From a virus, in the IMG/VR virus record IMGVR_UViG_3300045988_171260: 64,000 nucleotides of DNA; one strand, given 5' to 3'. How positions within the stretch are numbered: the first letter of the stretch is position 1; every line of letters starts with the position of its first letter. This document shows, in pieces, positions 1,676 to 39,303 of the stretch. The notes under the pieces are model-generated. The model saw only the letters and a list, made by a program, of their open reading frames with translations. It searched no databases and was not told the origin of the DNA. The translations under genes were made by a program, and so were the position numbers.

Positions 1676-2107
1676 TTATAAATAACAAACAAAAATTTCA
1701 ATATCTGTATTTTCAAATGTTTCAAATAATAACCGTTTAACATCATTCCAATTTAATTGGTCTAATCCACATCCGATTTTAGGCATTGCAATTTTTGTAA
1801 TATTTTCTTTTAAACAAATTTCTTTCATTTTAATTAACGCATTTTTAAGAGTTGCTAAAGTTGGTTTACTATAGTATCTTTCTTTAGTAATAAGATTAAA
1901 TACTTTTCCTTCTTTAAGACAATCTCCATTTGTCCAAGTTTGAAGATAATTAGGATATAATTGTTTCAATTTATTTTTCATATCAAACCTTTTATTAAAT
2001 TCAACAACTATTCCCTTACCCATCCCAAAATCCGCAGAAATGCAATGTGCTAAGTAATAATCACTATCCGTGCTAAACAAGTCTCTTTTTTGTTCTTTAT
2101 ATCTCAT
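1676..2107 (-). CDS. macro domain protein (ADP-ribose binding / hydrolase)
   Basis: 143 aa; AHCISADFGMGKGIV and IGCGLDQLNW resemble macro-domain glycine-rich ADP-ribose binding loops. Confidence 0.6.
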   Translation of the reverse strand: MRYKEQKRDLFSTDSDYYLAHCISADFGMGKGIVVEFNKRFDMKNKLKQLYPNYLQTWTNGDCLKEGKVFNLITKERYYSKPTLATLKNALIKMKEICLKENITKIAMPKIGCGLDQLNWNDVKRLLFETFENTDIEIFVCYL

Positions 2108-3269: not shown

Positions 3270-3803
3270 TTAAAAAGCACTAACATCAGCCTTTTTTTCT
3301 TCTTTTGGCTTAACAGTGATTTTTAAATCTTCAATAGGAATCAACTCATACTGGTAATTAGTTGCAAACATAGGAATAATTTTACAAGTACCTCTATTCG
3401 CCTTACACCACAATAAAATTCCTTTATATCTACCTCTACGATTTTTATAAACAGAAATTTTAATTAAAGGTATTTCAAACCCGCCTTGAGCTAAAACATT
3501 TTCTAAAGCCGTACGATCATCATTATCAACTTCAAGCATAATCATACCACAATCAATTTTATCCGCAATAGATTTAGCTCCTCTTAACAGATTCTGATCA
3601 TACTGTTGAGCTGTTATATAACTACTATTTAACTGAGTTGCCGTCATAATAAAAATGCCATACTGATTACACATATCTTTTAAACGAATTGAAATCATAA
3701 AAAGGATATTATCCTCTCTTAACCCTCTCACTCCAGTTTTAGATGAGACTTCACTTAAAATTTTCATACTTGTATGGATGTAATCGAAGCACGTAAGTCC
3801 TCT
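3270..3803 (-). CDS. replicative DNA helicase DnaB-like, exon 2 (C-terminal RecA-like half)
   Basis: Frame opens after TGA at 3807-3809; GLTCFDYIHTSM aligns to DnaB Walker B GLIMIDYLQLM; H3/H4-like RLKDMCNQYGIFIMTATQLN and RGAKSIADKIDCGMIML; 5-prime boundary uncertain by ~15 nt. Confidence 0.65.
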   Translation of the reverse strand, partial: RGLTCFDYIHTSMKILSEVSSKTGVRGLREDNILFMISIRLKDMCNQYGIFIMTATQLNSSYITAQQYDQNLLRGAKSIADKIDCGMIMLEVDNDDRTALENVLAQGGFEIPLIKISVYKNRRGRYKGILLWCKANRGTCKIIPMFATNYQYELIPIEDLKITVKPKEEKKADVSAF

Positions 3804-4811
3804 CTTTCAAGAGGCGTTGACTATCTCTTACTACGACAAAAGTCATAGGAAACCATTTCGAACTACGTACCAATAGTAGTCCTACTCCTCCGATCCGAGG
3901 ATAGTCGATACAGGTTCTTTAGACATTTTTCCAAGTTCTTCTTTTAATCAAATCTGCAACAGTTGCTTTTGAGATTCCATATTGTTTTGCTATTTTATCA
4001 TAGCTTTTCCCTGTTTTTTCTCTTTCTTCCCTAATTGCTTTTACAATTTCAACAGTAAGTTTGGTTTTTCTTCCCGTACCATCATTTGTTTTAAAAACTT
4101 CTGGCATTACAGTAGCATACCTTTTTCCAGTCCAGATATTTAAAAAAGATTGCCATTCTATTCTTCCTTCGTATTTTTCTTTAAATATTTTAGTTGGACT
4201 TTTTTGTTCTTTATAAGCAATTCGCAAAGAGATAACTTCTTCTTTCGTAAGAGCTGCATGAGACCATCTCATTTTTTCTTTAGTCTCTTCCTTATGCGGT
4301 CTCGCACAATTCTTTCCACCTTCTAAAACATTATAGCCATTAGGAACTTTTGAGTTAAATTTTAAAATATAATATTGTTCTAGCTTATTAAGTAAGTCAA
4401 AATCATTGTCATAAATTTCAGCTAATACTTCATAAGTAAAATTTTCATAACCATATTTTCTAAAAGCTCTATGAATTAATGATTCATAATCTTTATCAGA
4501 AGGATTGAAAGCAGAACTTCGATGCTGATTTTTTCTTTGCTCTGGGTTAATTGTTTGTCCTATATATTTTTTATTATTGATTTGATTAGTATAACAGTAA
4601 ACTATTGCCATTTTTAACTCCTTCCACACAATTTTCTATTTGTGTATGAAAGTAGTCAAAATAAATTTGATTATTTCTGTCCAAAGTTTCCCACGGGATT
4701 CCCATATATATTTCTACTTAGGGTTCCCCGTTAGCTATCTTAAACGATAACCCCAGTGGTAAGCTGGAAAAGTTTTACACAGTCCTTTAAACCCACAAAA
4801 GGGTTGAACAC
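3804..4811 (-). mobile_element. group I intron in helicase gene carrying a GIY-YIG homing endonuclease gene
   Basis: Splits DnaB-like ORF between Walker A and Walker B; GCUAACGGGGAA and AAUCCCGUGG core elements shared with two other introns in window; 3-prime AGAUAGUCAACGCC S-like element; exact junctions not resolved. Confidence 0.6.
3919..4629 (-). CDS. GIY-YIG homing endonuclease (intron-encoded)
   Basis: MAIVYCYTNQINNKKYIGQT...NGYNVLEGG classic GIY-YIG N-terminus; lies between helicase exons. Confidence 0.85.
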   Translation of the reverse strand: MWKELKMAIVYCYTNQINNKKYIGQTINPEQRKNQHRSSAFNPSDKDYESLIHRAFRKYGYENFTYEVLAEIYDNDFDLLNKLEQYYILKFNSKVPNGYNVLEGGKNCARPHKEETKEKMRWSHAALTKEEVISLRIAYKEQKSPTKIFKEKYEGRIEWQSFLNIWTGKRYATVMPEVFKTNDGTGRKTKLTVEIVKAIREEREKTGKSYDKIAKQYGISKATVADLIKRRTWKNV

Positions 4812-5837
4812 ATATTTAACATCATATTCTCTAACTCCACGTTTAATAGTATTCTCAATATCTTTTAAAGAAAAATCTGGTAATTGTTCTATATATAATG
4901 GACATCTCTTTAAAAGGTTTGCCGCATAAATAACACGTTCCCATTCTCCTGAATAGTATTCTCCAGAGATGATATGCTCTTCATCTACATCAGATAAAAA
5001 AGCGATCATCATAGTCTGAATTTCATCTTTCTCTTGTTCTGTTGAAATAAAGATTGTTGGTTCTTTAGTTCCATTTGGAATCCATTTTTCTTCTTTAGAA
5101 TCATAAATTTCATCGCACGCAATAGAACATGCATCCGCAATCATCGCTCGTGTTTTTCCTACTCCTGTTGCGGCTGATCGCAAATAAAATTTCTTTAATC
5201 TAGCCCCTCTAGTTACAGTATTTATCAAGGGTCCGAATAGAGGATATCCTGCTTCAGGTGTCTCTTTTAAGCGTTCGAGTAGCTCTAATGCTCCATTACC
5301 TGCCAGCTCCGCACCATTAGAAGCATCATCTACATACTTTAATCTTATATCAGTAATTTTTTTGTCAATGATCTCTGCAATATCTTCAATAGATGAATTA
5401 TCTAACCAATCCTCTTGAGCCTGCTTCTTCTTAACATCCATGATATTGTCTATATCATATAACCATGATAAATCCATTCCTATATTTTGATACATTCTTA
5501 GCAAAGTCATCTTTTTCATCCTGCTATAATAAAAATCAAAAGCAGCTAATTGTACTGATTTACTTAATTTTTGAAGATATTCTTGTCCCTTATTAGCTTT
5601 ATAAACTGCATAACTTTTTGGTCTTTGCTCTAAATAATCTTCTATCGCATTGATAGAAATTTCTTTAGCACCTAATTCATGTAAATTATATATAGACCCA
5701 AAAAGAATTTTATGAAATTCTTCTGTAAAATCCTCTTCATTAAAAAAATATTTTCCATCTTCATCTAGTAAATTAGGGTTTAAATAAATCCCTCCAATAA
5801 CTTGAATAATAGATGGAATGTCTACATATTTTCCCAC
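4812..5837 (-). CDS. DnaB-like helicase exon 1 (N-terminal domain, Walker A)
   Basis: 365-aa ORF; Walker A SAATGVGKT; last ~25 aa of ORF track product likely intron read-through. Confidence 0.65.
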
Positions 5838-5838
5838 T

Positions 5839-6354
5839 TCATTCTTCCTCCTTACTGTCTAAATTAAATAACCTTTTCATTTTTCGAATCGCGGAAGGAG
5901 GGGTGATTTCTATATATTTTATTTTAGGTTTATATTCTTCAATATTCTTATTTTCATTTGATAATTTCGCTAAATACAAGCTATAATAATATTGTAAAGC
6001 ATCCTTGTATATAAAAGGGATAATACCAATCCCGCCATTCGCTTTTTCTATTGAATTTCCTTTAATTTCATAAAACCAAATCAAAGATTTTAACATTCCA
6101 CTATAAGTATAATTATACATAGCTTTATAATCTTTAATTTGTTTTTTAATTCTAGCATTAATATAAGGTTCATCAAATAGTTTCATAATATATTGCTCTA
6201 ATTTTTCTAAGTCTTGCTCTTCCTGGCTTTTTTCTTTTTGATTCTTTTCCGCACATTCTTTATGTGCATATCTCCTTGCGGAAATTTGAGTTGTGTCTAT
6301 TTTGTCTCTATCAAAACGTTTTTTACAATAAACGCACGTTACTAAATGAGCCAT
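5839..6354 (-). CDS. zinc-ribbon protein (N-terminal module paralogous to that of AAA ATPase 33365..34567)
   Basis: VTCVYCKKRFDRD...RYAHKECAEK versus VKCYFCGERFDRD...RYAHERCAIK. Confidence 0.4.
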   Translation of the reverse strand: MAHLVTCVYCKKRFDRDKIDTTQISARRYAHKECAEKNQKEKSQEEQDLEKLEQYIMKLFDEPYINARIKKQIKDYKAMYNYTYSGMLKSLIWFYEIKGNSIEKANGGIGIIPFIYKDALQYYYSLYLAKLSNENKNIEEYKPKIKYIEITPPSAIRKMKRLFNLDSKEEE

Positions 6355-6420: not shown

Positions 6421-7359
6421 CTAATCCACACTTTTTACTAATTCTTTCAAGTCAGTAACAATTAAATCTAAAGCCTCAACTTGATCTCTTGAACATTGAC
6501 TAACTTTCATACCTTTTCCTAAATATCTATCTGTAATTTGAACGATTCTAGGCTGCCAATATTCTTTAAATTCCTCATTAGATTTTTGCATGATTAAATC
6601 ATTTACAATAGTATTGAAACTATTCAATAATTCATCAAAATCTAATTCCGCTCTTGTGTCTTTATATAAGTTTGATCTTTCGTCTGTAAAATACTCACTT
6701 CCATCTTCTTCCATTTGTTTATCAATAGCCATGCCAATAGCATCAACTAAGCTTTGATAATTAAAATCAATGTAATCTGGAGTATATTTAAAACGAGAGC
6801 CTGCAATATATCTTGGCGTTCCACGCATAAATAATTTAGTTGAAGTTTTACCTTCTTTATCTTGAATACTACGAGAGTAGCCTATAATATCGCACATTCG
6901 AGATACAATCGCTCTAGGTTTATTTCCTAAGGTAGGAACGATCTGATTATACTCTTGACCTTGCTCATCTTTAAAAGTTTTATCTACTGAGTGACTAATT
7001 AAAACTAAACCGTAATCCATTTGAATAATAGAACGTAAACATTCATCATATTCTTTGGCGACTAGAGTATACCCTTTCCCAAAAGGAATATCACTAACAG
7101 AATCCACCCCAAAGCCGCCATCTGGTCTTTTTGCATTGGCACAAATATACTTTTCACACAAGTCATATGCGATATCTGCTGTATCCAGAATAATCGTTTC
7201 AAACTGTTCTTTTACTTTTTCATCTTTTAATTGTCTCAGCACTTTTCTAAATTCCGCCCAAGTATTAATTGGCTGAGCCATTGCTCCAGGAATCGCGTTG
7301 TATCCTTTCTCAAAAGCCAGTAACAGGTGGCGGGGAAACTTGGTTGCGATCGTCGTTTT
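6421..7359 (-). CDS. AAA_24/Sak4-like RecA-fold ATPase, exon 2
   Basis: Begins KTTIATKF..., which completes Walker A when joined to exon 1; IILD Walker-B-like and LVLISH. Confidence 0.6.
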   Translation of the reverse strand, partial: KTTIATKFPRHLLLAFEKGYNAIPGAMAQPINTWAEFRKVLRQLKDEKVKEQFETIILDTADIAYDLCEKYICANAKRPDGGFGVDSVSDIPFGKGYTLVAKEYDECLRSIIQMDYGLVLISHSVDKTFKDEQGQEYNQIVPTLGNKPRAIVSRMCDIIGYSRSIQDKEGKTSTKLFMRGTPRYIAGSRFKYTPDYIDFNYQSLVDAIGMAIDKQMEEDGSEYFTDERSNLYKDTRAELDFDELLNSFNTIVNDLIMQKSNEEFKEYWQPRIVQITDRYLGKGMKVSQCSRDQVEALDLIVTDLKELVKSVD

Positions 7360-8352
7360 CATATATTATATAATATAATACATCAGACTATATCTTCAAA
7401 TATTTATAAAGGAATATCAGAAAAAACAAAACCTTTTAATTTACGAATACCTTTTAAATATCGGCAAATAGATGAAGGTGCAACTCCAAAAGCTTTAGCA
7501 CACTCTTTTTGTGAATTATAAGAGTCAATAAAATTACCATTATTATCATATACATAAACTATTTTCTTGTTTGAATTACTCCAACAGTTGATCTTATCTT
7601 TTTTATACGATTTAAACTGATATTGTTTATAATGCTGCTGTTGTTCTGTTATACATCTCCATATACTAGTGTAATCCAAATTAAGCTTTTGTGCAGCTTC
7701 ATAACCATTTACAAAAGACTGAATGTAATTGCCACTTAAATCATATTGATGACATTCTTTCATTTCATGTTGTTGTAAATTACTAGTGTAACTATGACGC
7801 ATATTCTCTAATGCTGTTGACCACTCTAAATTATCTATATTATTATTTAATTTATTTCCATCTATATGATTAACTTGCAATTCATCCATCTCTTCACAAG
7901 GTTTAAATGCTTTCATAACCAATCTATGAACTGAGCAATTCTTATCTATTCGATAACGTAAATGCACCATACGATAACCATTATTAGTAACTGATCCTCC
8001 TAATAAGGTTTTAGTTGAATCATTACGCACATTACCATAATTAGATACACTATAAAAAGTTTCTTGACCGTTAATTAAAATTTTTTTCCAAATTTCTTGT
8101 TTTTCCATAATTATTCCTCCTAAATACCTACGGGTATTTCGATTATAAAATCTACGGTTATAAAACCTAGTCGTTGAACCTTTGTCTCCGTGAGACACTT
8201 GGCTGCGGATTGGAACTACAATAAACGTTTTACTATACCAAGCACATTACTACTTGCCATTATAATATCGCTATTATAACTTAGTCTTTATTGATTATAT
8301 TCTATCCCCGCAATTTCCCCATATTATCGTGGCAAAAATTCTCTCTCTATTC
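7360..8352 (-). mobile_element. group I intron interrupting the Walker A codons of the ATPase gene; carries HNH endonuclease ORF
   Basis: Exon 1 ends GGU (U) at 8353, intron ends G at 7360; intron has AAAUUGCGGGGA (P), AAUCCGCAGCC (Q), GUUCAACGACUAG (R), AAGAUAUAGUC (S) elements. Confidence 0.7.
7404..8198 (-). CDS. HNH homing endonuclease (intron-encoded)
   Basis: 264 aa; HRLVMKAF...VNHIDGNKLNNNIDNLEW...ENMRH HNH motif. Confidence 0.75.
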   Translation of the reverse strand: MSHGDKGSTTRFYNRRFYNRNTRRYLGGIIMEKQEIWKKILINGQETFYSVSNYGNVRNDSTKTLLGGSVTNNGYRMVHLRYRIDKNCSVHRLVMKAFKPCEEMDELQVNHIDGNKLNNNIDNLEWSTALENMRHSYTSNLQQHEMKECHQYDLSGNYIQSFVNGYEAAQKLNLDYTSIWRCITEQQQHYKQYQFKSYKKDKINCWSNSNKKIVYVYDNNGNFIDSYNSQKECAKAFGVAPSSICRYLKGIRKLKGFVFSDIPL

Positions 8353-10033: not shown

Positions 10034-10714
10034 TTATTTAAGAGGTTTTCTTCCGCAACTTCTCTCGCCTTCGTTACAATAACCAAGATACTCACATTTA
10101 GGACAAAAATAATTTGTAACTAAATATTCCCATTCTTCAGAATATTGTTTCAAAGCTTTAATTAAATCATTAAATAATTCACGATATTCCCAATAGGCAC
10201 AAGTACACATTCTTTGATGAGACATATCTATTAAAGTTCTTAAATTAATTTTACAAGAAACAACAGTAGTCATTCCAAGCGGAAGTCCATTCGCAGTGTC
10301 CTCATGTGGGATACTATAAACTTGCTCTAAAGTTAATAGCGTTTCATTTATAATAGCCATTAATTCATCCCACAATAAACTAGCACCTTTTTCTTTTTTA
10401 ATACTATGCGGGGTAATGTATTTAAAATTATTCTTAGCGTAGTCTATATATCTAGTAGAAGCCTGAACCCTTGTAGGCATCCCGCCAATATGCGTATACC
10501 ATTCTCTAATGACTCTTGCAGAATATCCATCTAAAGTTAAATACACATCGGGAAATTCCCAAGTTCTCCCATGCCCACTTTTTAAGTTATGAATACCTCT
10601 TTTGTAATTTTTCTCTTTATTATCTATAGGAGCGTTATAACAAACTCCAGACATTTCTCCAATTAATGTAATTGGATCTTTAGTAGTTCTTTCGTTAATG
10701 ATAATTTGTCCCAT
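10034..10714 (-). CDS. ThyX-like flavin-dependent thymidylate synthase homolog with divergent active-site motif
   Basis: SGHGRTWEFPDVYLTL resembles ThyX SGHxSVxEH; RHR...S motif replaced by THIGGMPTRVQASTRY; C-terminal Cys cluster. Confidence 0.55.
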   Translation of the reverse strand: MGQIIINERTTKDPITLIGEMSGVCYNAPIDNKEKNYKRGIHNLKSGHGRTWEFPDVYLTLDGYSARVIREWYTHIGGMPTRVQASTRYIDYAKNNFKYITPHSIKKEKGASLLWDELMAIINETLLTLEQVYSIPHEDTANGLPLGMTTVVSCKINLRTLIDMSHQRMCTCAYWEYRELFNDLIKALKQYSEEWEYLVTNYFCPKCEYLGYCNEGERSCGRKPLK

Positions 10715-12377: not shown

Positions 12378-13487
12378 TCAAAAAATGCTACTTACTGTGC
12401 AGTCTTTTGCATCTTTATCTTCTCTTAAGCCTTTCCAAAATCCATGTCTAATTGTCTTTTCTTTAGAATCTAACTCCATACATTGTATTTTTACTACATG
12501 ATTAAGATAATTTTTTGGATTCTTAGACATATCTTCTTTTAATTCATCAGAAATTCCAGAATGAATAGTACCTATATCAATAATAGTTCCCTTATCATCA
12601 TATGCCCCTATTTTTATTCTGGCATTATGCCAATTATAATAATAAGGTTTTGTCACTGGAATTATTTCTTTTCCCATCTTAAGAAGTTCTTTATAAGTCC
12701 CTTGCATCCTAATACCATTTTTATCAATACAAAAATCCCAAGAGTCTAATTCTTTTCCATAGTACTCCTTCGTAGGCTCCTCAAAACCTATAATGATAGC
12801 GTCTATAAAATCTACTTTTTTTGCTTTTAAATTACTATCTGGACGTTTTCCAGGTTGATATATCTCATTTTTCTTTTTTAGAACCATTCCCTCTTCGCCT
12901 GCGGATAAGGCATTTCCAACTCTTTCATATAAATTATCTTCCCATGCTTCCGCAAGTTCAAGAAAGTCATATTTTTTTAAATTATACTTTTTCCAAACTT
13001 CTTTTAATATATTATATCTAACCAAACTGCCAGTATTTAGTAAGTTATAACCATTATATATTAAAATATCGTGAATATAATAATGAATTAGTCCATATGA
13101 GCCGTTTTGTCTTTCTATTGCTTTACCAGCCAAACTTCCCATAATAGGCGTAACATTTTTAGAACTTCCTCCTGGATAATAAATTTCTCCAATTAAAACA
13201 GTCTTATCTGGTAAACACTCTAAAGCATTAACTATATGAGGAATATTGTCATGCTTCTCTGTCAGAAGCCCAGTCTTCTTACTTACTGTTCGCCCAAATA
13301 AATAACAATCTTCATTTTTAACAAATTGATAGAAAGCTCCATCTTTTTTAAGCTGACCAAAATATTCTCCGCTTGAACAAGCTTTCTTTAATTGCTCTTC
13401 TGTAGAAGAATGAATCAGCATAGGTTCAATCATCAAATCTTCTGCTCCTGGATATAAAGATTTAATTTTTTCTTTATTAAAAACCAA
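12378..13487 (-). CDS. ATP-dependent DNA ligase (could alternatively be an RNA ligase)
   Basis: 369 aa; motif I KKDGAF, EGMVLKK (motif IV/V), LKAKK and C-terminal OB-like region. Confidence 0.6.
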   Translation of the reverse strand: MVFNKEKIKSLYPGAEDLMIEPMLIHSSTEEQLKKACSSGEYFGQLKKDGAFYQFVKNEDCYLFGRTVSKKTGLLTEKHDNIPHIVNALECLPDKTVLIGEIYYPGGSSKNVTPIMGSLAGKAIERQNGSYGLIHYYIHDILIYNGYNLLNTGSLVRYNILKEVWKKYNLKKYDFLELAEAWEDNLYERVGNALSAGEEGMVLKKKNEIYQPGKRPDSNLKAKKVDFIDAIIIGFEEPTKEYYGKELDSWDFCIDKNGIRMQGTYKELLKMGKEIIPVTKPYYYNWHNARIKIGAYDDKGTIIDIGTIHSGISDELKEDMSKNPKNYLNHVVKIQCMELDSKEKTIRHGFWKGLREDKDAKDCTVSSIF

Positions 13488-13524: not shown

Positions 13525-15867
13525 TTATAACTTAACAATAGAAGAGATTGAACTATTCTTTAACATAATATTTCCTATGCTTGTGCGGCTTAACTTAGGA
13601 ATATCTTTTGTAGATATACATATTGATTTTGGTTTGCCTACAATTAATAAGTTATCTGAATCATCAACCATGCTTCCGCCAATGATTACTCCAGAAGTAT
13701 CTGTAGTTTTATAAATAACAACTCCCTTTCCCGCTCTTTGCTGAAGTGGTAGTTCCTCTAAAGATAATTTCTTTCCCAAACCCCTTGCTGTAACAATAGC
13801 TAAACAATCATTCTTATTACTAATTGGTAATCCCGCAATAACTTCATCATTTTCATCTAACTTAATAGCTTTAACGCCTGCGGTAACTCGTCCAATAGGA
13901 TTGATTTCATCTGTGGGAAAATGAATAGCCATACCATTCTTTGTTATAATCATCATCTCTTCTTTTTCTATGAAAGTTACATTAGCTAGAGAATCATTAT
14001 TTTTTAAATTTATTGCGGCAATACCTGTACTTCTCTTTACTTTAGTATATTCTTCTAAAGAAGTCTTCTTAATTAAACCTTGCTTAGTTACAAAAATAAC
14101 ATATTTTGCTTTTGTTTTTCTATGCAAAGAAGTAATAGCAATAACTTTTTCATCTTTTTCTATATTTATTAAAGTGCCAATATTTATTCCTTTTGATAGA
14201 TTAGTTCCAACTGGTATATTATCCACCAGAAGTCTATACATTTTACCTTTAGATGTAAAAATCATAAGAGTATCAATAGTATTAGTAGATATAACGTCTA
14301 ATATGGCGTCATTTTCACTTTTGACTCCTTTTCCATTCTTCTTCTGAACTTTAAAAGATTTTAAAGGAACTCTTTTAATATCTCCATTTTGAGCCGCAAT
14401 AACAACTACATTTTCTGGAATAATTTCTGCAACTTCTTTTTCTTCTGGCTTAATATCAATGTGAATTAATTCAGTTCTTCTGTCATCACCATACTTTTTT
14501 ACTAGTGATTCTAATTTAGTTTTAATATCAGATAACTGCAATTCTCTATTTGAAATATGTAATTCCAATTCCGCAATTTTAATTAACAAGTCTTTCTTTT
14601 CGTTTTCAAGAGTTATTTTTTCCAAACGAGCTAAACTAGATAATCTCATTGCCAAAATGGATTTAGTTTGAATTTCAGACAGCTTATAAATTTCAATTAG
14701 TTTATTTTTCGCAGCTTCTGAATTTTCTGACTTTTTAATTAAAGAGATTACATTATCAATGTCCTCTAAAGCTATCAAAAGACCTTCTACAATATGTAAT
14801 CTATCTTTTGCTTTCTTTAAATCAAAAGTCAATTCTTTTTTTAAACATTCAATATTATGCTCTATATATATCTTACAACAGTCAGCTAAATTTAGCTCAG
14901 TTGGTACTTTATCAACTAAGGCGACTTGATTATATGATATGCTTGTTTGAAGGTTTGTTTTAGAATAAAGCTTTTTTGCTATTGAATCTAAGTTCGAATC
15001 TTTTTTACACTCGATTACAAGTCTAATTCCTTTTTTGTTTGTTTCGTCGCGGATTTCAGAAATTCCTTCTATCTCTTTTGAATCACAAACCTCACCTATT
15101 TCAGTCAGTAACCCTTCAATAGTAGTTCCATAAGGAATTTCATAAAAGACAATGTTATTTTTTTCAATTTTATATTTTCCGCGGACTTTAACAGAACCAT
15201 GTCCAGTTTTCATAATCTGCGGAATATCTTTACTATTTATTATAATTCCACCTGTTGGAAAATCCGGTCCAGGTAAAAGAGGCTTTTTTCCGTCCATGTA
15301 ATCATAAATAGCTTGTGCAACTTCCTTAAGGTTGTGCGGAAGCCAGTTACAGGCGATGGCAACTCCAATTCCAGTATTTGGGTTACACAGTAAGTTTGGA
15401 AAAATAGCTGGTAAGGTTACTGGTTCATCCAGAGTTTCATCATAATTTTGAATAAAATCAACATTTTTCTTTTTTAATCCAGATAATAAGCCATCTTCTG
15501 CAATTTTACTTAATCTTGCTTCTGTATAACGAGATGCAGCAGGTCCATCTCCTGCAATATTTCCGTTATTACCATGCCAGTCAATAAGAGGGTATCGCAA
15601 TACCCAGTTTTGAGAGAGACGGACTAGAGCACCGTAGATTGAACTGTCTCCGTGCGGATGATATTTACCCATGACGTCTCCTACTATTCTAGCACTTTTA
15701 ATATGAGGTTTAGAAAAAGTTCTTCCCTCTTCAAAAGCTGACCATAAGATTCTCTTTGCAACAGGTTTTAAACCTGACTTTGCATCAGGAATTGCTCTAT
15801 CGGTATTAACTGCAACTGCATACTCTATAAAGTTCGTACCAAGTTCTTGCTTTATATCATTCTGCAT
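13525..15867 (-). CDS. type IIA DNA topoisomerase subunit A (GyrA/ParC / T4 gp52-like)
   Basis: 780 aa; ...YHPHGDSSIYGALVRLSQ...RYTEARL active-site Tyr context. Confidence 0.85.
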   Translation of the reverse strand: MQNDIKQELGTNFIEYAVAVNTDRAIPDAKSGLKPVAKRILWSAFEEGRTFSKPHIKSARIVGDVMGKYHPHGDSSIYGALVRLSQNWVLRYPLIDWHGNNGNIAGDGPAASRYTEARLSKIAEDGLLSGLKKKNVDFIQNYDETLDEPVTLPAIFPNLLCNPNTGIGVAIACNWLPHNLKEVAQAIYDYMDGKKPLLPGPDFPTGGIIINSKDIPQIMKTGHGSVKVRGKYKIEKNNIVFYEIPYGTTIEGLLTEIGEVCDSKEIEGISEIRDETNKKGIRLVIECKKDSNLDSIAKKLYSKTNLQTSISYNQVALVDKVPTELNLADCCKIYIEHNIECLKKELTFDLKKAKDRLHIVEGLLIALEDIDNVISLIKKSENSEAAKNKLIEIYKLSEIQTKSILAMRLSSLARLEKITLENEKKDLLIKIAELELHISNRELQLSDIKTKLESLVKKYGDDRRTELIHIDIKPEEKEVAEIIPENVVVIAAQNGDIKRVPLKSFKVQKKNGKGVKSENDAILDVISTNTIDTLMIFTSKGKMYRLLVDNIPVGTNLSKGINIGTLINIEKDEKVIAITSLHRKTKAKYVIFVTKQGLIKKTSLEEYTKVKRSTGIAAINLKNNDSLANVTFIEKEEMMIITKNGMAIHFPTDEINPIGRVTAGVKAIKLDENDEVIAGLPISNKNDCLAIVTARGLGKKLSLEELPLQQRAGKGVVIYKTTDTSGVIIGGSMVDDSDNLLIVGKPKSICISTKDIPKLSRTSIGNIMLKNSSISSIVKL

Positions 15868-30748: not shown

Positions 30749-33238
30749 TTACTCTTTTACTTTGCCCAAGTTTTCAATTAGTTTTTCAAGATTGGTTCCT
30801 CTTAACAATCTATCTGTTACTTCTGCGACAGATTCATTACCTCGAGCGATTGCGTATGGAGCCATTGATTTTGTTACAGTTTCAAGCATAGAAGCATTTG
30901 ATGTAGATGTAAGTGCGGCAACTAAGTCTGGACCGATTGCTGTTACAATCTTACTAACAGTTTCAGCATAAGCTTCCTGTTTAGCTTTCTCAATATTAGC
31001 TTTAGCTTTTTCATATTCTAATTGAGTAGTATCTTCTTTCTTAGTTCTTTCCAATTTAGCCTCAGTAATAGCATCAATAAGGGTCTGCATATCACATTCC
31101 GCTTGTTTCTTAGCTTCAAGCTGCTCCCGCTCCTTCTTATCTAATTCTTCTTTTGCTTTAAGCTCTTCCATTTCAAGAGTTTTCTTAAGTTCAAGTTTAT
31201 GAATTTGATTATCATATCTAATCTTAGCTTCTTCTTTTTCAAAAGCAGCTAATTTAGTTACAACTTCCATTTTTCTTGTTGCATCAGATAATTCAAGACA
31301 TTTACGAATCATTTCTTCTTGATGCTCATTAAGAATATCAGCAACATTTTGTTCAACAGCTATTTTTAACACTTCTACATCATGTACAAGCATACCATTT
31401 TCTTTAAAGAAACGTCCTTCTCTTTCAATTTCTGGTTTTCCATTTTTTATGTTTTTATCATCTGAAAGATCTAAGCAAACTTTTCTAACAATATCAGAAG
31501 CATTTGTATAAAAATCTTCAATATTGTATTTTTTTGCTTCTCTTTTTAGTAAGCTTCTCTGGCGGTCACACATATATTTAACATAATTCTCTACAGAAAA
31601 CCATTTATCTTTATACTTCTCCAAGAAGTCTACGCAGTAAGATACTTTAATTTGAACATTAACAAAATCCTTTGTCTGAACGTTAATTAAATCAGAAATT
31701 TTGTTATTCTCAACCCGTAAGAAAACAGTCTTAATTAAGTTATCTGTTGTTTTAGGGCGTCCTGTTGATAATTCTAAAACTTCAAGAGTTTCATCATAAT
31801 TAAGTAGTTTTGTTTTTGGTCCAACTACTACTTCTCTTTTACCAGATTTAGAAGTTACATTGATTGCATATCCAGTCCAAACATCAATAGTAATAACTCC
31901 ATCAAATCTATTATCTATTGTGATAGTTCTAGGTTTAGTGTAAGAAGTTCCTCTGCTAATACCAGCATTACTTTCAAGACAATCCATTGAAGCTACATCT
32001 GAAAATGCTGAATTAAAAATGAGATTCTTAATGTCAGAAACTCCACCAGTTTTTTTAATATTTTTCTCTAAAGATTTCTCATTTAAAGATTTATTATATT
32101 CAATAGCATCAACGTTACCTGGATACCATAACTGGCACTCTTTTGAAGTTAATTTTCTTTTTACAACTACTTCTTTACGCGGATCTGGTAAATACATCTT
32201 AGGTCCAACTACAGTCTTAATTTCACCAGTTTCACGATTCATCACATATCGACCTTCGCCTTCTGGAATAGCAATAGCGTGATGCATATGTTTTCCATCA
32301 TAAGAAATAATCGCGTGCTCTGGTCTTGGATAATAAATCATCTGCTCATTTCCAGTGATGAATAATTCTTCTCCGATTGGATGAGTAACTCCATTTTCAG
32401 TGTATTCTGCGATAACTTTTACATAGATACCAGAAATTTTTGATAACTCGATAGCTCTAAAACAATAGCTGCCATGTGAAGTTTTAACAAATGTTTCTGT
32501 TGGTTTTGGAAAAACTACATCTGGTCCATGTAGATACCTCTTATTTCCATTTTCATCTTTTAAAATACAATATTCGAGTCTTTCAAGAGTAACTGCATCT
32601 CTAATATAGTTCTTTTCATCGACAGGAATAACTTCAATACCTGTTGGCGGGATGTAAAAAGATACTTTTGTTCCTTCAATAACAAGCATCTGACCCGGAA
32701 AAAACTTGTTTGAAGTTTTCTGTTCTTTTCCATCTGTATCTGTAACTACGCCTTCATTTTTATTCGCGGCGTCCGCATCATAAACTCTAGCTAAAAGATA
32801 CTGATTACTTCTAAGGCGGTGTCCTTGAATTACTTTCGCCATCTGCCCAGGATAAAGAGCAAAAGACTCTGGACCGAAGATGTTTACTTTCTTACCGATC
32901 TCAAGATTAGATGGAGACTGATTTGGTCTACCTGCCTGCGGATGCTGCCCATCTGCTGTTGGATTTTTTAATACCACATACCAGCCTTCTGGGGCTGAAA
33001 TAAAAAGTTGCTTGGCTTTATCATAATCTCCACACTCTTCAAAACGTTTATTCACAGTATTGAAAATAACTGGAGTTTCCTGCTGAGAAAGTGAAGTCTG
33101 AAAAGGTCCGACTGCACATTTGATATTACCATCTGTTTTACTCAAAATGTGAGCAAACTCATTCATATTTAAAACAAAATCTCTCTGGCGAGGAGCTACT
33201 GCTCTTCCGTCATTTTCGTATTCATCATATCTTCCCAT
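30749..33238 (-). CDS. major vault protein (MVP) homolog
   Basis: 829 aa; N-terminal MVP-repeat-like segments (FALYPGQ, YIPP); shoulder region [27 protein letters not shown] versus human [41 protein letters not shown]...[13 protein letters not shown] versus LFSVPDFVGDACKA...DDFHKNSARIIRT; long coiled coil; C-terminal [11 protein letters not shown] versus EAIGPSTIRDL. Confidence 0.75.
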   Translation of the reverse strand: [829 protein letters not shown]

Positions 33239-33364: not shown

Positions 33365-34567
33365 CTACTTAGCTTTCATAGCTTCAACATATTTATTACC
33401 TTTAAGCTCTTTATCTTTTGCTAATTCTTTATTTATGATATTTAAGTCATCAACATCCATTCCTTTTAAAAGAGAAATCTGAATTACTTCTTTTAAATTT
33501 GAAAATACCTGCTCTAATTTTGCGATACGGTTAATGGTTCTATAAGAAAATAAACATTCAATTCCCATAGAATCAGTTGCTTTTCTAAAAGCATGAGCAA
33601 AGTTTACTAAGTCCATATTATTTAAAGCCATAGCCTTCTCAATTTTTGGGGAATAGTCAATATTAACTAAAGCAAATCTATCAAGAGAAGCTCTATCAAG
33701 ACAATAGCGTCCAGTGTAATTATTATCTGCACCTGTGCCTAATGTATTACCTGCCGCGATAATTCGAAAATTTGGATGTGCTTCTACTTTGCCAATAGGA
33801 AAATCAAAATACCTATTAGCAATCGCCGCGTTTAATATAATTAAAACTTCTGGAATAGAACCATCCATTTCATCAAGGAAGAAAACTCCGCCTTTAGTAA
33901 ATACTTTGTAGAATTGAGTTTCTTGATATTTACCATTTGCATCAATAAAACCAGTCAGTTTATATTCTTGAGTTACAGCATTGGTAAAATAAAAATCTAA
34001 ACCAAGAGCTTCTGCAACTTGCTTACAGATAACGTTTTTACCAGTTCCTGCCTTGCCAGTCAGATATACTGGAATATCAAGATTAACAATCTGCAATACC
34101 TCGTCAAATTTCTCATGTAAAGTACCTTCAATTTTTCGGGTTTCTGTTGGAGTCTTAATTTCATGCTTCTCTGGGAGGAAACCATAAACTTCTTTAATTC
34201 TTGCATCAATTTTAGGTACAATAATATTCATAATTTCGTCTTCACTTGCTTTTGCAATAGTAGACATCATAAACTTCTGCATTTCTTTAATCATCTGTGC
34301 AGTAGTTTGAGCCATAGCATCTGTCATTAAATTTGCATTTTTTGATTCTATTCTTGGCATATCTTTATCAACCTCTTTCTTCTCTTTTTCAACACTAATA
34401 GAGGAACCATTTTTAAAAATGATTGCAGCGTCAGAAGCTTCTGACTTTTTCTTGGCTTTTATCGCACAACGTTCATGTGCATACCTATTTGCATTTACTT
34501 TAATAAAAGGTTCAAAATCACGATCAAATCTTTCACCACAAAAATAACATTTTACTGGATGTCCCAT
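33365..34567 (-). CDS. AAA_5 / MoxR-like ATPase with N-terminal zinc ribbon
   Basis: CYFCGERF...HERC; Walker A LTGKAGTGKN, Walker B FFLDEMD, sensor AAGNT, LDRASLDRF. Confidence 0.65.
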   Translation of the reverse strand: MGHPVKCYFCGERFDRDFEPFIKVNANRYAHERCAIKAKKKSEASDAAIIFKNGSSISVEKEKKEVDKDMPRIESKNANLMTDAMAQTTAQMIKEMQKFMMSTIAKASEDEIMNIIVPKIDARIKEVYGFLPEKHEIKTPTETRKIEGTLHEKFDEVLQIVNLDIPVYLTGKAGTGKNVICKQVAEALGLDFYFTNAVTQEYKLTGFIDANGKYQETQFYKVFTKGGVFFLDEMDGSIPEVLIILNAAIANRYFDFPIGKVEAHPNFRIIAAGNTLGTGADNNYTGRYCLDRASLDRFALVNIDYSPKIEKAMALNNMDLVNFAHAFRKATDSMGIECLFSYRTINRIAKLEQVFSNLKEVIQISLLKGMDVDDLNIINKELAKDKELKGNKYVEAMKAK

Positions 34568-34574
34568 ACACTAA

Positions 34575-35414
34575 TCAACTCCTTTGCTTATCTTGTAATT
34601 TTTCAACAATCTTTTTAACATCATATCCATTTTCTCTAATCCAATAACTATTTAAAATTACGACCGAACCATTTTTACAATTAAGATTTTTTTTAATTAT
34701 ATCTAAATCTTGAATTGGACATCCATATGAGAGAGCGAAAAGAGTTTCTTTAAGATCTGGACAAGTTTCTAAGTATTTAAAGCCAAATCTTCTAAACATG
34801 GATGGATGTGCTATTGGAAAACAAAGTTTTTGTAAGTCCAATTCTTGTCCATAACTTTTTACTTTTACCATTGGAAAAACTGCTTCACTTCTGTTCACAG
34901 TCATCGCTCCAATAAAACCTACTGATAATTCTACTGAGGTGCCTTGAGATTCAAGGAGTTTAATTATAGTAAGTAATGTAGCACCAGCTTTTATAAAAAA
35001 ATCTTGTGACTCACCACAACTTCCAGCAATAGAATAAATAATCGAAATTGTTTTTTTCTTTTGCGGAATTTTATTAATAGTAATCATTGAATTAGGAAGA
35101 TTCCTGATTGCATTTGGAACATTTGGCACATATCCAATAACCGCGTTTGTAGGAACTCTTTTGTTTATAGTAATTAGATTACTATAGCTTTTGCTTTGTT
35201 CCTTCACTTGTTTTTTTATATCTGGTAAAATTTCAGTATATCCTTTTCTAATTAAAGAACTCGCTTCTGCATAGGATTCCGTTCCGTACCATGTTGGTTT
35301 TCTTTCAGGTTTTTCTGAACTATTGCAGTTCCTCATTATTTGATTATTAGGGCGAGAATCTAAGACTTTAATCATTTCATCAATGCTTTTAAAATTCTCA
35401 GTAATAAATCTCAT
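34575..35414 (-). CDS. hypothetical protein
   Basis: 279-aa ORF tightly following the AAA gene. Confidence 0.4.
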   Translation of the reverse strand: MRFITENFKSIDEMIKVLDSRPNNQIMRNCNSSEKPERKPTWYGTESYAEASSLIRKGYTEILPDIKKQVKEQSKSYSNLITINKRVPTNAVIGYVPNVPNAIRNLPNSMITINKIPQKKKTISIIYSIAGSCGESQDFFIKAGATLLTIIKLLESQGTSVELSVGFIGAMTVNRSEAVFPMVKVKSYGQELDLQKLCFPIAHPSMFRRFGFKYLETCPDLKETLFALSYGCPIQDLDIIKKNLNCKNGSVVILNSYWIRENGYDVKKIVEKLQDKQRS

Positions 35415-35624: not shown

Positions 35625-37190
35625 TTATTTAGCTTCATCAATAGTAGGCTCAATATTGACGGTAACATCTTTGTCTTTTACTAATTTAGCTCCAAGGATT
35701 CCTGACAGTAAGCCTTTAAGATCTAATCCCATAGACTCACTCAATCCTTCTGATACCTGAGTAATGTTCTTCATCACATTCTCAGTTAGCTTAGAGCTAT
35801 CTCCGCCATACATATAGATTTTATCTACGTTTGTATAAGCTTTACCTGCGGCTTCCGCGATAGCTGGCATCTGTTCAAATAATGTTTTAATAGCCTGTAA
35901 TTGCATATCCATCTGTGCAGCTTCGCCATACTGTTTCATAGCTTCAGCTTTCTTTAAAATACCTTCAGCTTCCGCTAAAGCTTTAGCCTGAACTGCAGCA
36001 GCTTCAGCCTCTCCTTTAGCTTTAATACCAGCAGCTTCGTTTTCCATCGCAATCTTCTGAGCTTCTGCGGCAGCCTTGGTTGCTTCCGCTTGCTGTTCAG
36101 CTTCAAATTTTTCAGCTTCAGCTTTTTTCTGTCTCTCGAACAATTCAGCTTCAGAAGCTTTCTGAATTTCATAAAGTTTAGCATCTGCGTCCTGCTGAGC
36201 CGCGTATTTACGAGCTTCCGCTTCTTTCTTAACTTCCGCTTCAAGTGTTCTTTCTTTAATTGCAACTGCCCGCTCCTTCAATTCAATTTCTTTCTCTTGT
36301 CTAGCCAAGTTGGCGTTAGCAGTTGTAATTTCAATAGTCTTACGCTGTTCTTCCTGTTGAATCTGATAAGCTGCATCTGCTTCAGCTTTCTTTGTATCAG
36401 CTTCCTTCTGTAACTCAGCTTTCTGAATAGAAAGTTCATTTTGTTTCTTAGCGATTTCCAAATCAGCTTTTACTTTTGCATCATTTGCTGCCTGAGCTGC
36501 TTCCGCCTTAGCAACCGCAATTTCTTTTTCTGCTTTTGCTTTTGAAATAGCTGCGTCTTTACTAATCTGAACAGTATTTTCCAGACCTAAGTTTTCGATA
36601 ACTCCGTTGCGGTCTTTAAAATTCTGGATATTAAAAGTTGTTAAATCAAGTCCCATATCATTAAGATTAGGAGTCACGTTATCAATGACTTTTTCAGCAA
36701 AAGCCTTTTTATCTCCTTGAATTAATTCTTTTAAAGTTGTTTGAGAAATGATTTCTCGAATATTACCTTCAAAGACAGGAGTAATAATCTCTTTAATTTG
36801 ATCAGGTCTATAACCTAAAAACTTTGAAGCCGCAATTTTCAGTCTTTCTGGATCCTGAGAAATAGATACGTTTGCTACTGCATCTACAAGAATATTGATT
36901 GCATCGCTTGTAGGGATTTCATCTCTTGATGTAAAATCTGATTGAATGTTTTCAAGAGACAAATAATCTACTCTTTGAATAATTGGAATTACAAAACAGC
37001 CTTTTCCAATAGCAGTTCTACATCCTCTCGGACCTGTAATTACCATTGCTGTGTTAGGTGGAGCTTTTTTATACATTGTCTTACTAATTCCCACAATAAT
37101 GGCAATAACAATAGCAAGAATTATAACTGTCGTAAAAACAGGTGCACATTTAGCTAAAGTAAAAAGAATTGCGTTTCCTATATTTCCCAT
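35625..37190 (-). CDS. SPFH / band-7 (flotillin-like) membrane protein with long coiled coil
   Basis: N-terminal TM helix, SPFH-like core (VITGPRG...IPIIQRVDYLSL...), ~250-aa Ala/Glu/Lys-rich coiled coil. Confidence 0.65.
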   Translation of the reverse strand: MGNIGNAILFTLAKCAPVFTTVIILAIVIAIIVGISKTMYKKAPPNTAMVITGPRGCRTAIGKGCFVIPIIQRVDYLSLENIQSDFTSRDEIPTSDAINILVDAVANVSISQDPERLKIAASKFLGYRPDQIKEIITPVFEGNIREIISQTTLKELIQGDKKAFAEKVIDNVTPNLNDMGLDLTTFNIQNFKDRNGVIENLGLENTVQISKDAAISKAKAEKEIAVAKAEAAQAANDAKVKADLEIAKKQNELSIQKAELQKEADTKKAEADAAYQIQQEEQRKTIEITTANANLARQEKEIELKERAVAIKERTLEAEVKKEAEARKYAAQQDADAKLYEIQKASEAELFERQKKAEAEKFEAEQQAEATKAAAEAQKIAMENEAAGIKAKGEAEAAAVQAKALAEAEGILKKAEAMKQYGEAAQMDMQLQAIKTLFEQMPAIAEAAGKAYTNVDKIYMYGGDSSKLTENVMKNITQVSEGLSESMGLDLKGLLSGILGAKLVKDKDVTVNIEPTIDEAK

Positions 37191-37513: not shown

Positions 37514-38560
37514 TTAAAATTCAAATGCTTCCGCTTTTAATTCAGGATGAGTAATTTTAATATAAGTACCTTTCATGCCCATACTAGCAATATCTGCTAC
37601 TTTATTCTCTTTCATTTTACTTAAAAGATTATTATAAACAGAACGTGAAATTTTGTTTTTTTCAACCAACTTAACGATACTTATACTGCCCTCACTGCCA
37701 ATTTCTTCAATAATAGAATAATAAGCTCTCTCTTCTGCATTAGTTAATTGTCTAAAGAAATTTTTTTTTGAAATAAATTCTTTTTTAACTCCGTCAAAAG
37801 AACTTCTTAAAATTTCAATAGTACCAATATCTAACGCAGCTTCTGCGTTTTCACGTTCTGGAGATTTTCTATTGCGATATTTTGTTGCGAACCTATCTAC
37901 ATCATACATAAGAGTTTCTGCGAGATATAATTTTTTTTCTGGATTTGAGCATACCTTTAATAAACCATACTTTAAATTCCAAAGCATAGTAAAGTTTTCT
38001 TCTTTTGGTTGAATACACTCTAAGTAAGGTTTATTTTGAACATATTGTTCTAAGAAATAAAATAATCTTTTTGCATTATGCAATTTCTTATTATCTGTAG
38101 GATTCTGCTTTAATGTATGAACTAACTGACCGCTAATGGACTGTATTGCCCTAAGTTCATCATATCTTGCAATAGATTCTCTTGAGGCGATAAAATATTT
38201 ATGAAATAAATCTTTATATTTTGGATTTATAATACAATATTCTGTAAATAAAATCTCTGTATAGTTGATATTTTGTTTCATTAGCTGAATCCGCAGAGAA
38301 CGAAAGTCTTTTAAATCAATATGTTCACCATTTTTATAATGGATTTCTTTAGAAAGTAGTGAAGTGTTTAAACACAAATCAGAAAAAGATGGCAAAATAA
38401 ACACCTTACTATCAACATCACTAGTCTCTGTCGCAAAACCATAGTTTTGAGAGCCATAAAGAAAGATACCTAAAATTCTATCTTCATTATAACCTAAGTC
38501 GATTACATAGTCTAAATGCTCTTGAAGTCTTTTCATTATTTTTTCTTTTTGTACAGCCAT
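37514..38560 (-). CDS. Pol-beta superfamily (minimal) nucleotidyltransferase with C-terminal winged-helix-like region
   Basis: LYGSQNYGFATETSDVD matches GS...DxD NTase motif; C-terminal SIIEEIGSEGSISIVKLVEKNKISRSVYNNLLSKM HTH-like. Confidence 0.55.
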   Translation of the reverse strand: MAVQKEKIMKRLQEHLDYVIDLGYNEDRILGIFLYGSQNYGFATETSDVDSKVFILPSFSDLCLNTSLLSKEIHYKNGEHIDLKDFRSLRIQLMKQNINYTEILFTEYCIINPKYKDLFHKYFIASRESIARYDELRAIQSISGQLVHTLKQNPTDNKKLHNAKRLFYFLEQYVQNKPYLECIQPKEENFTMLWNLKYGLLKVCSNPEKKLYLAETLMYDVDRFATKYRNRKSPERENAEAALDIGTIEILRSSFDGVKKEFISKKNFFRQLTNAEERAYYSIIEEIGSEGSISIVKLVEKNKISRSVYNNLLSKMKENKVADIASMGMKGTYIKITHPELKAEAFEF

Positions 38561-38577
38561 ATAATTCCTCCTTTCAT

Positions 38578-39303
38578 TTAAAGAGTAAATTTTCTATCAT
38601 AAAAATATTTTTCTACTTTCATTTCATCTAAGTCAAATAAGGCGACTTTTCCTGAATTAACAGAATTTAAGTCTAAATCTATTTTATGACCATTAGCGTA
38701 TATTAAAATTTCTGCTTTAGCGGTCTGACCTAAAACAGAAGATACCCACTGAACAGGAGAATGTCCATGGATGATATACCGGTTTTCATGTTCTTTTGTT
38801 TTATTCCAATCTTCAAAAATATGGATTCTACCCCATAAATAAGGTAATTCAGTTTTTTCGATTACTTTCATTTCTTCTTTGGATTTATCTATATTCATTC
38901 CAGCGTGAGATAGAAAAATTTTCTGACCTTTCGTGTTCGTATAATTTATATATTCTGGTAAATTATTTAATTTTTTTACAAGGTTAATCAAAGAATCATC
39001 ACTCCATAAAGAAAGAGAGTCCCAGGTAGGTCTTCCGCCATCGGAAAACCAAAAAAGTAGAAATTCAGTATCTCCATGAAGATATTCTGAAATACAGGAT
39101 GCCGCCATATGCTCGTGGTTTCCTTTTAAATAAATAACTCTTTTATCTTTTAAAAGTTCTTCCATGAGAACTACTCCATCTGGACCGCGGTCTATTGCAT
39201 CTCCGAGGAAATATAATGTATCTGTTTCATCGCAATAATTTTTAATTTGACGCCATAAATCGTAGCAACCATGCAAATCTGTAAAACAATAATGTTTATT
39301 CAT
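38578..39303 (-). CDS. metallophosphatase (PP-lambda / ApaH-like)
   Basis: CFTDLHGC, LGDAIDRG, KGNHEHM, GHSP motifs. Confidence 0.65.
   Translation of the reverse strand: MNKHYCFTDLHGCYDLWRQIKNYCDETDTLYFLGDAIDRGPDGVVLMEELLKDKRVIYLKGNHEHMAASCISEYLHGDTEFLLFWFSDGGRPTWDSLSLWSDDSLINLVKKLNNLPEYINYTNTKGQKIFLSHAGMNIDKSKEEMKVIEKTELPYLWGRIHIFEDWNKTKEHENRYIIHGHSPVQWVSSVLGQTAKAEILIYANGHKIDLDLNSVNSGKVALFDLDEMKVEKYFYDRKFTL

Follow-up and report, generated by a model that had tools for sequence, protein, structure and literature searches.

The MoxR-class AAA+ motors NorQ and CbbQ work with the von Willebrand factor A (vWA) proteins NorD and CbbO. Among isolate phages, ATPases of the phrog_249 type occur in 829 records, mainly of Kayvirus, cyanophages and mycobacteriophages, and major vault protein (MVP) homologues were described in human-gut Caudoviricetes in a preprint that reported no TEP1 homologue (bioRxiv 10.1101/2023.11.10.566534). 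For YorH of phage SPbeta, no published function was found in our literature searches. Here we describe a 64,000-nucleotide stretch of viral DNA (IMG/VR record IMGVR_UViG_3300045988_171260, hereafter the window) in which an ATPase encoded beside an MVP homologue begins with the same small zinc-finger-like module as a YorH-like protein encoded beside the replicative helicase. The two modules are homologous, and the fusion to the ATPase is a rare offshoot of the YorH family.

An earlier sequence-only reading had pointed to two open reading frames (ORFs) with a common N-terminal module, and both are present at the positions given, on the minus strand:

33365..34567, minus strand: finger-fused ATPase gene, 400 amino acids (aa), from the ORF call
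34448..34567, minus strand: CCHC finger of the ATPase, residues 1-40, ligands C7, C10, H31 and C34
5839..6354, minus strand: YorH-like gene (finger, helical domain and tail), 171 aa, from phrog_4680 and tblastn with yorH
6235..6354, minus strand: CCHC finger of the YorH-like protein, residues 1-40, from alignment, spacing and an AlphaFold2 model

The proposed kinship of the two N-termini was borne out. A gap-free BLASTP alignment showed 19 of 40 residues identical (E 2e-10), and both copies possess the ligand spacing C-x2-C-x20-H-x2-C, with an F-D/N-R-D-x-E-P loop and an R-Y-A-H-x-x-C-A segment as the hallmark. The motif written down from the sequence was right in substance and inexact in detail: the ATPase has CYFC instead of C.YC, and RFDRD is separated from RYAH by 10 residues, not 8. 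In the 120 closest homologues of the ATPase, the module stands at the start of 78 proteins, 76 of which keep the spacing exactly; the same spacing is found in 118 of 120 homologues of the YorH-like protein. Eleven non-ligand positions (V5, F14, D/N15, R16, D17, E19, P20, R28, Y29, A30 and A35) are also kept in both groups. A hidden Markov model (HMM) built only from 95 helicase-side fingers was searched against the 890 six-frame ORFs of the window; it scored the ATPase ORF at 63.0 bits (E 7.7e-19), with 6.6 bits for the next-best ORF, and it also recognised 79 of the 120 homologues of the ATPase. The finger occurs exactly twice in the window, and the top identity between an ATPase finger and a YorH-side finger was 76%.

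AlphaFold2 predicted the same topology for both fingers, consisting of four short strands followed by a helix that begins at H31/C34. In these metal-free models, a hairpin turn holds C7 and C10, and H31 and C34 sit where helix 32-41 begins. Neither model presents its ligands from two beta-hairpin knuckles, and the predicted fold is a CCHC treble-clef-like finger rather than the classical two-knuckle zinc ribbon assumed from the sequence. No family for the finger was found in the Pfam copy searched, NCBIfam or PADLOC. Pfam matches were sub-threshold only: zf-FCS with an E value of 0.0067 on the family member P0354, and Arc_trans_TRASH and YHS on one member each. In BFVD, one structural relative of the finger bears the name “TRASH domain protein”.

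The two sets of fingers differ systematically at four positions (18, K versus F/W; 23, Q versus K; 25, S versus N; 27, R versus N/Q). The notion of a shared binding module therefore stands with respect to homology, whereas a common ligand is uncertain given these paralogue-specific substitutions. Orthologous fingers had identities of 0.68 (ATPase with ATPase) and 0.72 (YorH with YorH), as compared to 0.45 and 0.53 between the ATPase and YorH fingers of one genome in the two genome pairs compared. Since orthologous fingers are more alike than paralogues within a genome, the duplication is old and not homogenised; neither gene conversion nor within-genome co-evolution of the two fingers was seen in these two pairs.

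A finger profile was used in a full HMMER scan of 1.84 billion representatives, which recovered 660 clusters at E ≤ 1e-3 and 270 at E ≤ 1e-10. Nearly all of them have the YorH architecture, placing one to four tandem fingers ahead of the same helical domain and an acidic tail; proteins with two, three and four fingers include P0354, P0418 and P0281, and most YorH-family members end in a conserved acidic LFxFLDEE-type tail. Because nearly all finger clusters are of this kind, the finger has its home in the YorH family, and the ATPase fusion, which is limited to one group of roughly 110-145-kb gut phages, is a rare offshoot or capture. Other apparent fusions of the finger, to an EcoRI methylase tail, tRNA_SAD, ARMT1 and AbiJ, were rejected as likely assembly chimeras; only C-terminal fragments of the enzymes are present in them. 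Megablast of an 8-kb region returned no isolate-phage match, and a GTDB genome scan returned no close relative. The only host hint is a 68-aa Megamonas funiformis fragment (WP_440972220.1).

The fused protein was divided into segments using its AlphaFold2 model, with confidence given as the predicted local distance difference test (pLDDT), and conservation was taken as the mean pairwise identity over 17 diverse fused homologues:

Residues 1-37/40 (the finger listed above): pLDDT 84-90, mean identity 0.65
34313..34447, minus strand: linker, residues 38/41-85, pLDDT 29-60, disordered, mean identity 0.15
34410..34419, minus strand: T5A5 homopolymer tract within the linker, with -1 frameshift variants in public assemblies
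34358..34360, minus strand: internal ATG (M70) near the linker end, preceded by AAAGAGG
34178..34312, minus strand: two long N-terminal helices, residues 86-130 (helices 82-107 and 109-128 in the AlphaFold2 model), mean identity 0.47
33368..34177, minus strand: AAA+ motor and lid, residues 131-400, with a NorQ/CbbQ structural match; mean identity of the motor core (residues 131-305) 0.88

The linker is Lys/Glu-rich and variable in both length and sequence, while the finger is kept intact and in frame in fusions down to 59% overall identity. Because the finger is 65% conserved and the adjoining linker drifts to 15%, the comparison points to purifying selection on a fused finger carried by a freely drifting tether.

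Ten of the 17 fused homologues have M[SP]R/K at the position aligned with M70, and two more have an internal Met nearby. Finger-less relatives start with MSR or MPR where the fused genes have this internal Met. Given this coincidence, the finger and linker seem to have been added before the old start codon, and M70 is probably the relic start codon of a finger-less ancestor, which may still be in use. Purine runs resembling Shine-Dalgarno sequences precede the internal Met in six loci, with the Lys/Glu-rich codon composition as a confounding factor. At the T5A5 tract, split variants consist of a finger ORF of 66-72 aa and a 331-aa ATPase starting at the internal Met (P0121/P0124 and P0058/P0059); these may be real, or they may be sequencing or assembly errors.

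The motor itself matched Pfam AAA_5 (PF07728) with 42.8 bits against a cut-off of 22 (E 6.8e-11) and phrog_249 with an E value of 1e-66, the coverage of both lying within residues 51-384. Walker A (GKAGTGKN, 34034..34057) and Walker B (FFLDEMD) motifs are present. In a Foldseek search of the AlphaFold2 model against the PDB, the top 21 matches were NorQ and CbbQ (E 5e-14 to 7e-10, target template-modelling (TM) scores of 0.71-0.78). Sequence matches in the PDB comprised midasin AAA modules and CobS, the latter with an E value of 3e-5 over the P-loop core only. The MoxR-proper profile AAA_3 (PF07726) reached 15 bits against a cut-off of 27. With the AAA_5 match and NorQ/CbbQ as the best structural matches, the “MoxR-type AAA_5” label given to this ORF from its sequence is a fair one. 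The “porphyrin biosynthesis” label of PHROG, which would make the protein CobS-like, is not supported, as the CobS equivalog TIGR01650 scored 18 bits against a cut-off of 558.55.

The two-helix region is common to all members of the family, with or without the finger, including the finger-less homologues. In close relatives of the ATPase, the finger is replaced by one of at least four other N-terminal heads, which are unrelated to one another, or no head is present. The family combines a near-invariant motor with a swappable N-terminal head. The other heads, such as a cysteine-free “Y-N/D-P” domain and a “VVYT” domain, sit on a similar linker (loci L084, L085, L091, L017, L077, L070 and L042; proteins P0089, P0096, P0099, P0102 and P0112) and gave no match to a family in Pfam, NCBIfam or PADLOC. 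The cysteine-free N-domains of more distant ATPases were also considered as degenerate fingers, an idea that was dropped for lack of significant similarity (BLAST E > 6).

On the helicase side, the sequence-only reading had described 5839..6354 as a stand-alone ribbon gene. In fact, this ORF encodes a 171-aa member of the YorH family, in which the finger forms the N-terminal domain and is followed by a helical C-domain, as phrog_4680 covers residues 1-167 of 171 (E 2e-25); the ATPase ORF has the finger alone and does not belong to the whole-length family. In tblastn, the 171-aa protein matched SPbeta yorH and 35 other SPbeta-like phage records, with homologues in SPbeta-like phages of Staphylococcus, Mammaliicoccus and Enterococcus, and its metagenomic homologues bear the precomputed Pfam family PF26927. 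Its AlphaFold2 model has a pLDDT of 84. The relevant features of the replication module are:

5956..6225, minus strand: helical domain (residues 44-133) of the YorH-like protein, its fold weakly similar to that of a DnaD domain or G39P
6421..7362, minus strand: AAA_24 / Sak4-like gene (AAA_24 E 1.9e-31) upstream of the YorH-like gene, in synteny with SPbeta yorG
4740..5837, minus strand: first part of the DnaB-like replicative helicase (Pfam DnaB and DnaB_C), beginning 1 nt past the YorH-like stop

The helicase thus abuts the YorH-like gene just as had been noticed. The module is syntenic with SPbeta yorG (Sak4/AAA_24), yorH, yorI (helicase) and yorJ, and the synteny of the YorH-like gene also holds in a Staphylococcus SPbeta-like phage. 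We surveyed 80 IMG/VR loci, 75 of them informative: in all 75, the helicase starts no more than 39 nt from the YorH-like stop and an AAA_24 gene lies upstream. No significant PDB sequence match was found for the YorH profile. Because the helicase adjoins in every informative locus and the helical domain weakly resembles a DnaD or G39P fold, YorH is probably a helicase partner, loader or organiser, a role that follows mainly from synteny.

The helicase gene is split (3270..5837, minus strand). The ORF at 4740..5837 loses its homology to SPbeta YorI near residue 344 and enters an intervening sequence, within which a GIY-YIG homing-endonuclease ORF lies at 3919..4629; the C-terminus resumes at about 3790..3270 with 41% identity to YorI 342-501. 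Rfam identified no group I intron in the intervening sequence (3600..5000). A free-standing HNH/NUMOD homing-endonuclease gene (7404..8198, minus strand) lies between the AAA_24 gene and the next gene of the module. The replication region further codes for a macro-domain protein, ThyX, an ATP-dependent DNA ligase and gyrase/topoisomerase IV subunit A (1676..2107, 10034..10714, 12378..13487 and 13525..15867, all minus strand). In related phages, gyrB and gyrA (L020, 14045..21011; L021, 6855..13730) are fragmented by several GIY-YIG endonuclease genes.

The genes around the ATPase form a different setting:

34575..35414, minus strand: DUF7192 gene (PF23822, E 1.3e-31), adjoining the ATPase gene
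35625..37190, minus strand: SPFH/flotillin-like gene (Band_7, Flot), upstream of the DUF7192 gene
30749..33238, minus strand: MVP homologue (MVP_shoulder, Vault_3), downstream of the ATPase gene
41726..43207, minus strand: DUF2828/DUF7788 protein with a vWA-type domain (Pfam), a candidate third component

The constant neighbour of the ATPase is DUF7192, which adjoins it in nearly all of about 100 loci as well as in Kayvirus. The DUF7192 protein of the window is 32% identical to the neighbour of the Kayvirus ATPase, and the ribosome-binding site of the ATPase gene (AAGGAG) sits in the last codons of the DUF7192 gene. Neither NCBIfam nor PADLOC gave a family for it, and literature searches for yorH and DUF7192 returned nothing relevant. 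In the 411-aa protein P0108, the first ~140 residues of DUF7192 are joined straight to the ATPase at EIHEVRTP, which reflects a fusion by deletion or else an artefact of assembly; a real fusion would back a functional link between the two proteins.

A vWA partner had been proposed for the ATPase on the strength of the gene at 41726. This is plausible: the genes are contiguous as vWA-DUF7192-AAA in one clade of related loci (L025-L037, L043 and L083), and a vWA gene lies within a few kb in some others. However, it is absent from most other flanks, DUF7192 is the constant partner, and in the window the vWA-type gene, whose VWA_2 match is weak (E 0.0012), is 7 kb from the ATPase. The same gene is encoded 8 kb from the MVP homologue.

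The description of the ATPase as part of a vault cluster was correct insofar as it lies between the SPFH and MVP genes, but the finger is not strictly linked to that cluster. SPFH genes were found in L022-L024, L060, L103 and L105. Among the first 100 loci, the finger occurred together with SPFH and MVP in 5, and about 90 had neither, and we considered that the finger goes with the vault protein. This perfect association was broken by L102, which has the finger and no MVP or SPFH gene within 4 kb, and by L105, described below. Where the ATPase lacks the finger, YorH genes that carry it are nevertheless present on the same IMG/VR contigs.

The surroundings of the ATPase look like an RNA-repair-type island. 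The flanks of the ATPase and vault genes (27865..30283 and 37514..39303, minus strand) encode an RNA ligase that includes a PHA02142 OB domain, a pair of calcineurin-like phosphoesterases, and a Pol-beta nucleotidyltransferase that has a CodY-type helix-turn-helix. Genes for Thg1, a KTI12/AAA_33 kinase and PhoH occur in addition in related loci.

We consider homology and capture of the finger to be highly probable. The finger would originally have headed YorH proteins, the obligate neighbours of the SPbeta-type DnaB helicase, and in one group of gut phages it would have been copied onto the N-terminus of a NorQ/CbbQ-like MoxR-class ATPase; we infer that the transfer ran from YorH to the ATPase. 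Its insertion would have taken place upstream of the original start codon of the ATPase, with the ~45-residue disordered linker as the joint. In the ATPase, the finger may act as a tethered targeting head, with six heads per hexamer if the motor forms the usual ring, and would bring a DUF7192-assisted, possibly vWA-assisted, remodeller to its ligand. Such a targeting role seems rather likely to us. Nucleic acid is our best, if tentative, guess for the ligand, because both fingers are basic (their sequences give a net charge of about +4 to +5), the home family has arrays of one to four fingers, and there is a hint of a TRASH-like fold. The TRASH/FCS/L24e class of fingers has RNA- and DNA-binding members. 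The statement as a whole, an old lineage-specific capture of the YorH finger as a targeting head of the ATPase with nucleic acid as the best guess for the ligand, has in our estimate slightly better than an even chance of being correct.

Several observations weigh against this scenario. Finger-bearing ATPases are not monophyletic in a simple neighbour-joining tree of the motor, built without support values, and the finger-less P0077, P0082, P0087 and P0106 nest among fused genes in it. L105 has a near-identical SPFH-DUF7192-AAA-MVP cluster with no finger anywhere within 6 kb. Together, the tree and this finger-less cluster indicate that the finger head is dispensable or replaceable. The split variants and the possible internal start raise the chance that much finger-less ATPase is made. 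As to the ligand, the conserved polar residues D15, R16, D17, E19, P20 and R28 are as acidic as basic, and such mixed charge suits a nucleic-acid surface no better than it suits an interface with a protein or a network of internal salt bridges. The four paralogue-specific substitutions also imply that the two copies may bind different things.

Of the competing explanations, a convergent or chance likeness of two short Cys/His motifs could draw on the small size of the module, only ~37 residues, and on the assorted zinc-finger families among its sub-threshold Pfam matches. Its probability is negligible: the ligand spacing is identical almost universally, the flanking residues are conserved across homologues at eleven non-ligand positions, so that the resemblance goes well beyond generic CxxC spacing, cross-family identity reaches 76% with the same predicted topology, and the YorH-only HMM separates the ATPase ORF from the next ORF by 63 bits to 6.6. 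We regard chance similarity as ruled out by the shared non-ligand positions together with this score. A more serious competitor treats the finger as a protein-docking module: in YorH it would hold the DnaB-like helicase or some other protein of the replisome or the host, and in the ATPase it would recruit the remodeller to the same or a related partner or to a peptide tail. The YorH-like and helicase genes lie ≤39 nt apart in all 75 loci, as genes of stoichiometric partners typically do, the surface conserved in both paralogues is mixed acidic and basic, and the acidic LFxFLDEE-type tail of YorH could be a docking peptide. There are precedents for docking by zinc domains: the Bacillus subtilis loader DnaI binds its helicase via a zinc domain at its N-terminus whose ligands are three Cys and one His, and the zinc domain of ClpX docks adaptors and substrates. 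The substitutions at four surface positions, however, speak against one identical partner, a single docking partner is less usually served by arrays of up to four fingers, and the neighbourhood of the ATPase is RNA-repair/vault-like and does not consist of replication genes. On balance we hold docking to be possible but on the unlikely side.

A narrower version, in which the finger is a replisome address label and YorH and the ATPase dock on the same component, either the DnaB-like helicase or its DNA, strikes us as quite improbable. If true, a NorQ-like remodeller would be physically linked to replication forks and would bring the SPFH/vault-like and RNA-repair genes into that link, and the other heads of the family would send the same motor to other addresses. 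Even less likely, in our view, is that the finger on the ATPase is a relic, decaying or dispensable, with the working ATPase made from M70 and the finger ORF merely carried along or made as a separate small protein. Frameshift-split versions in several assemblies (P0121, P0124, P0058 and P0059), the slippery T5A5 tract, the conserved internal Met with its Shine-Dalgarno-like run and the nesting of finger-less relatives among fused ones all speak for such a relic. Yet homopolymer frameshifts in assemblies may be errors, and Lys/Glu-rich composition alone is expected to yield Shine-Dalgarno-like purine runs. The contrast between a finger at 65% and a linker at 15% identity, the mark of purifying selection, and the retention of the finger in 78 of the 120 closest homologues weigh against a relic.

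Overall, the duplication of the finger is real and conserved, but it is a case of ordinary domain shuffling rather than a new mechanism. YorH, otherwise uncharacterised yet universal beside the helicase in SPbeta-like phages, can be assigned a finger family defined by sequence, and probably acts as a helicase partner. A widespread phage ATPase labelled as CobS or “porphyrin biosynthesis” can be described as a NorQ/CbbQ-like MoxR motor with a DUF7192 partner and a swappable head. Identification of the head's ligand would provide the first handle on what this ATPase remodels, and since the head occurs beside phage vault-protein and SPFH homologues, the ligand might show how those enigmatic genes are used. 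We found no literature on a MoxR-class ATPase with a captured YorH-type finger head.

Compared with known systems, the 171-aa ORF is a full-length member of the SPbeta YorH family (phrog_4680, PF26927) and shares both its synteny and its N-terminal CCHC finger, whereas the ATPase shares only the finger, has no YorH helical domain and differs at the four paralogue-specific positions. The gut Caudoviricetes with MVP are probably the same kind of phage, with the same MVP gene beside the ATPase; the preprint describing them mentions neither the ATPase nor the zinc finger, and neither the SPFH nor the DUF2828 vWA gene (bioRxiv 10.1101/2023.11.10.566534). The Kayvirus AAA family ATPase (phrog_249), with an adjacent 281-aa gene, is 46% identical to the window ATPase from residue 81 on and has the same DUF7192 neighbour; in none of the 829 records of Kayvirus and other isolate-phage ATPases was the finger covered.

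In its layout, the fused protein resembles ClpX, in which a small treble-clef zinc domain that recognises adaptors and substrates is likewise connected through a flexible linker to an AAA+ motor. ClpX belongs to another AAA+ clade and has C4 rather than CCHC ligands; the likeness is an analogy of architecture, for which ClpX is the nearest precedent. NorQ and CbbQ are the best structural matches of the motor (TM ~0.75), and a vWA-type gene lies in the neighbourhood of the phage ATPase. The sequence identity to them is only 16-20%, and the aligned chains of ~250 residues do not cover the N-terminal head and linker of the phage family. Here, in contrast to the NorQ and CbbQ systems, the constant partner is DUF7192, and the setting is a phage RNA-repair/vault-like island.

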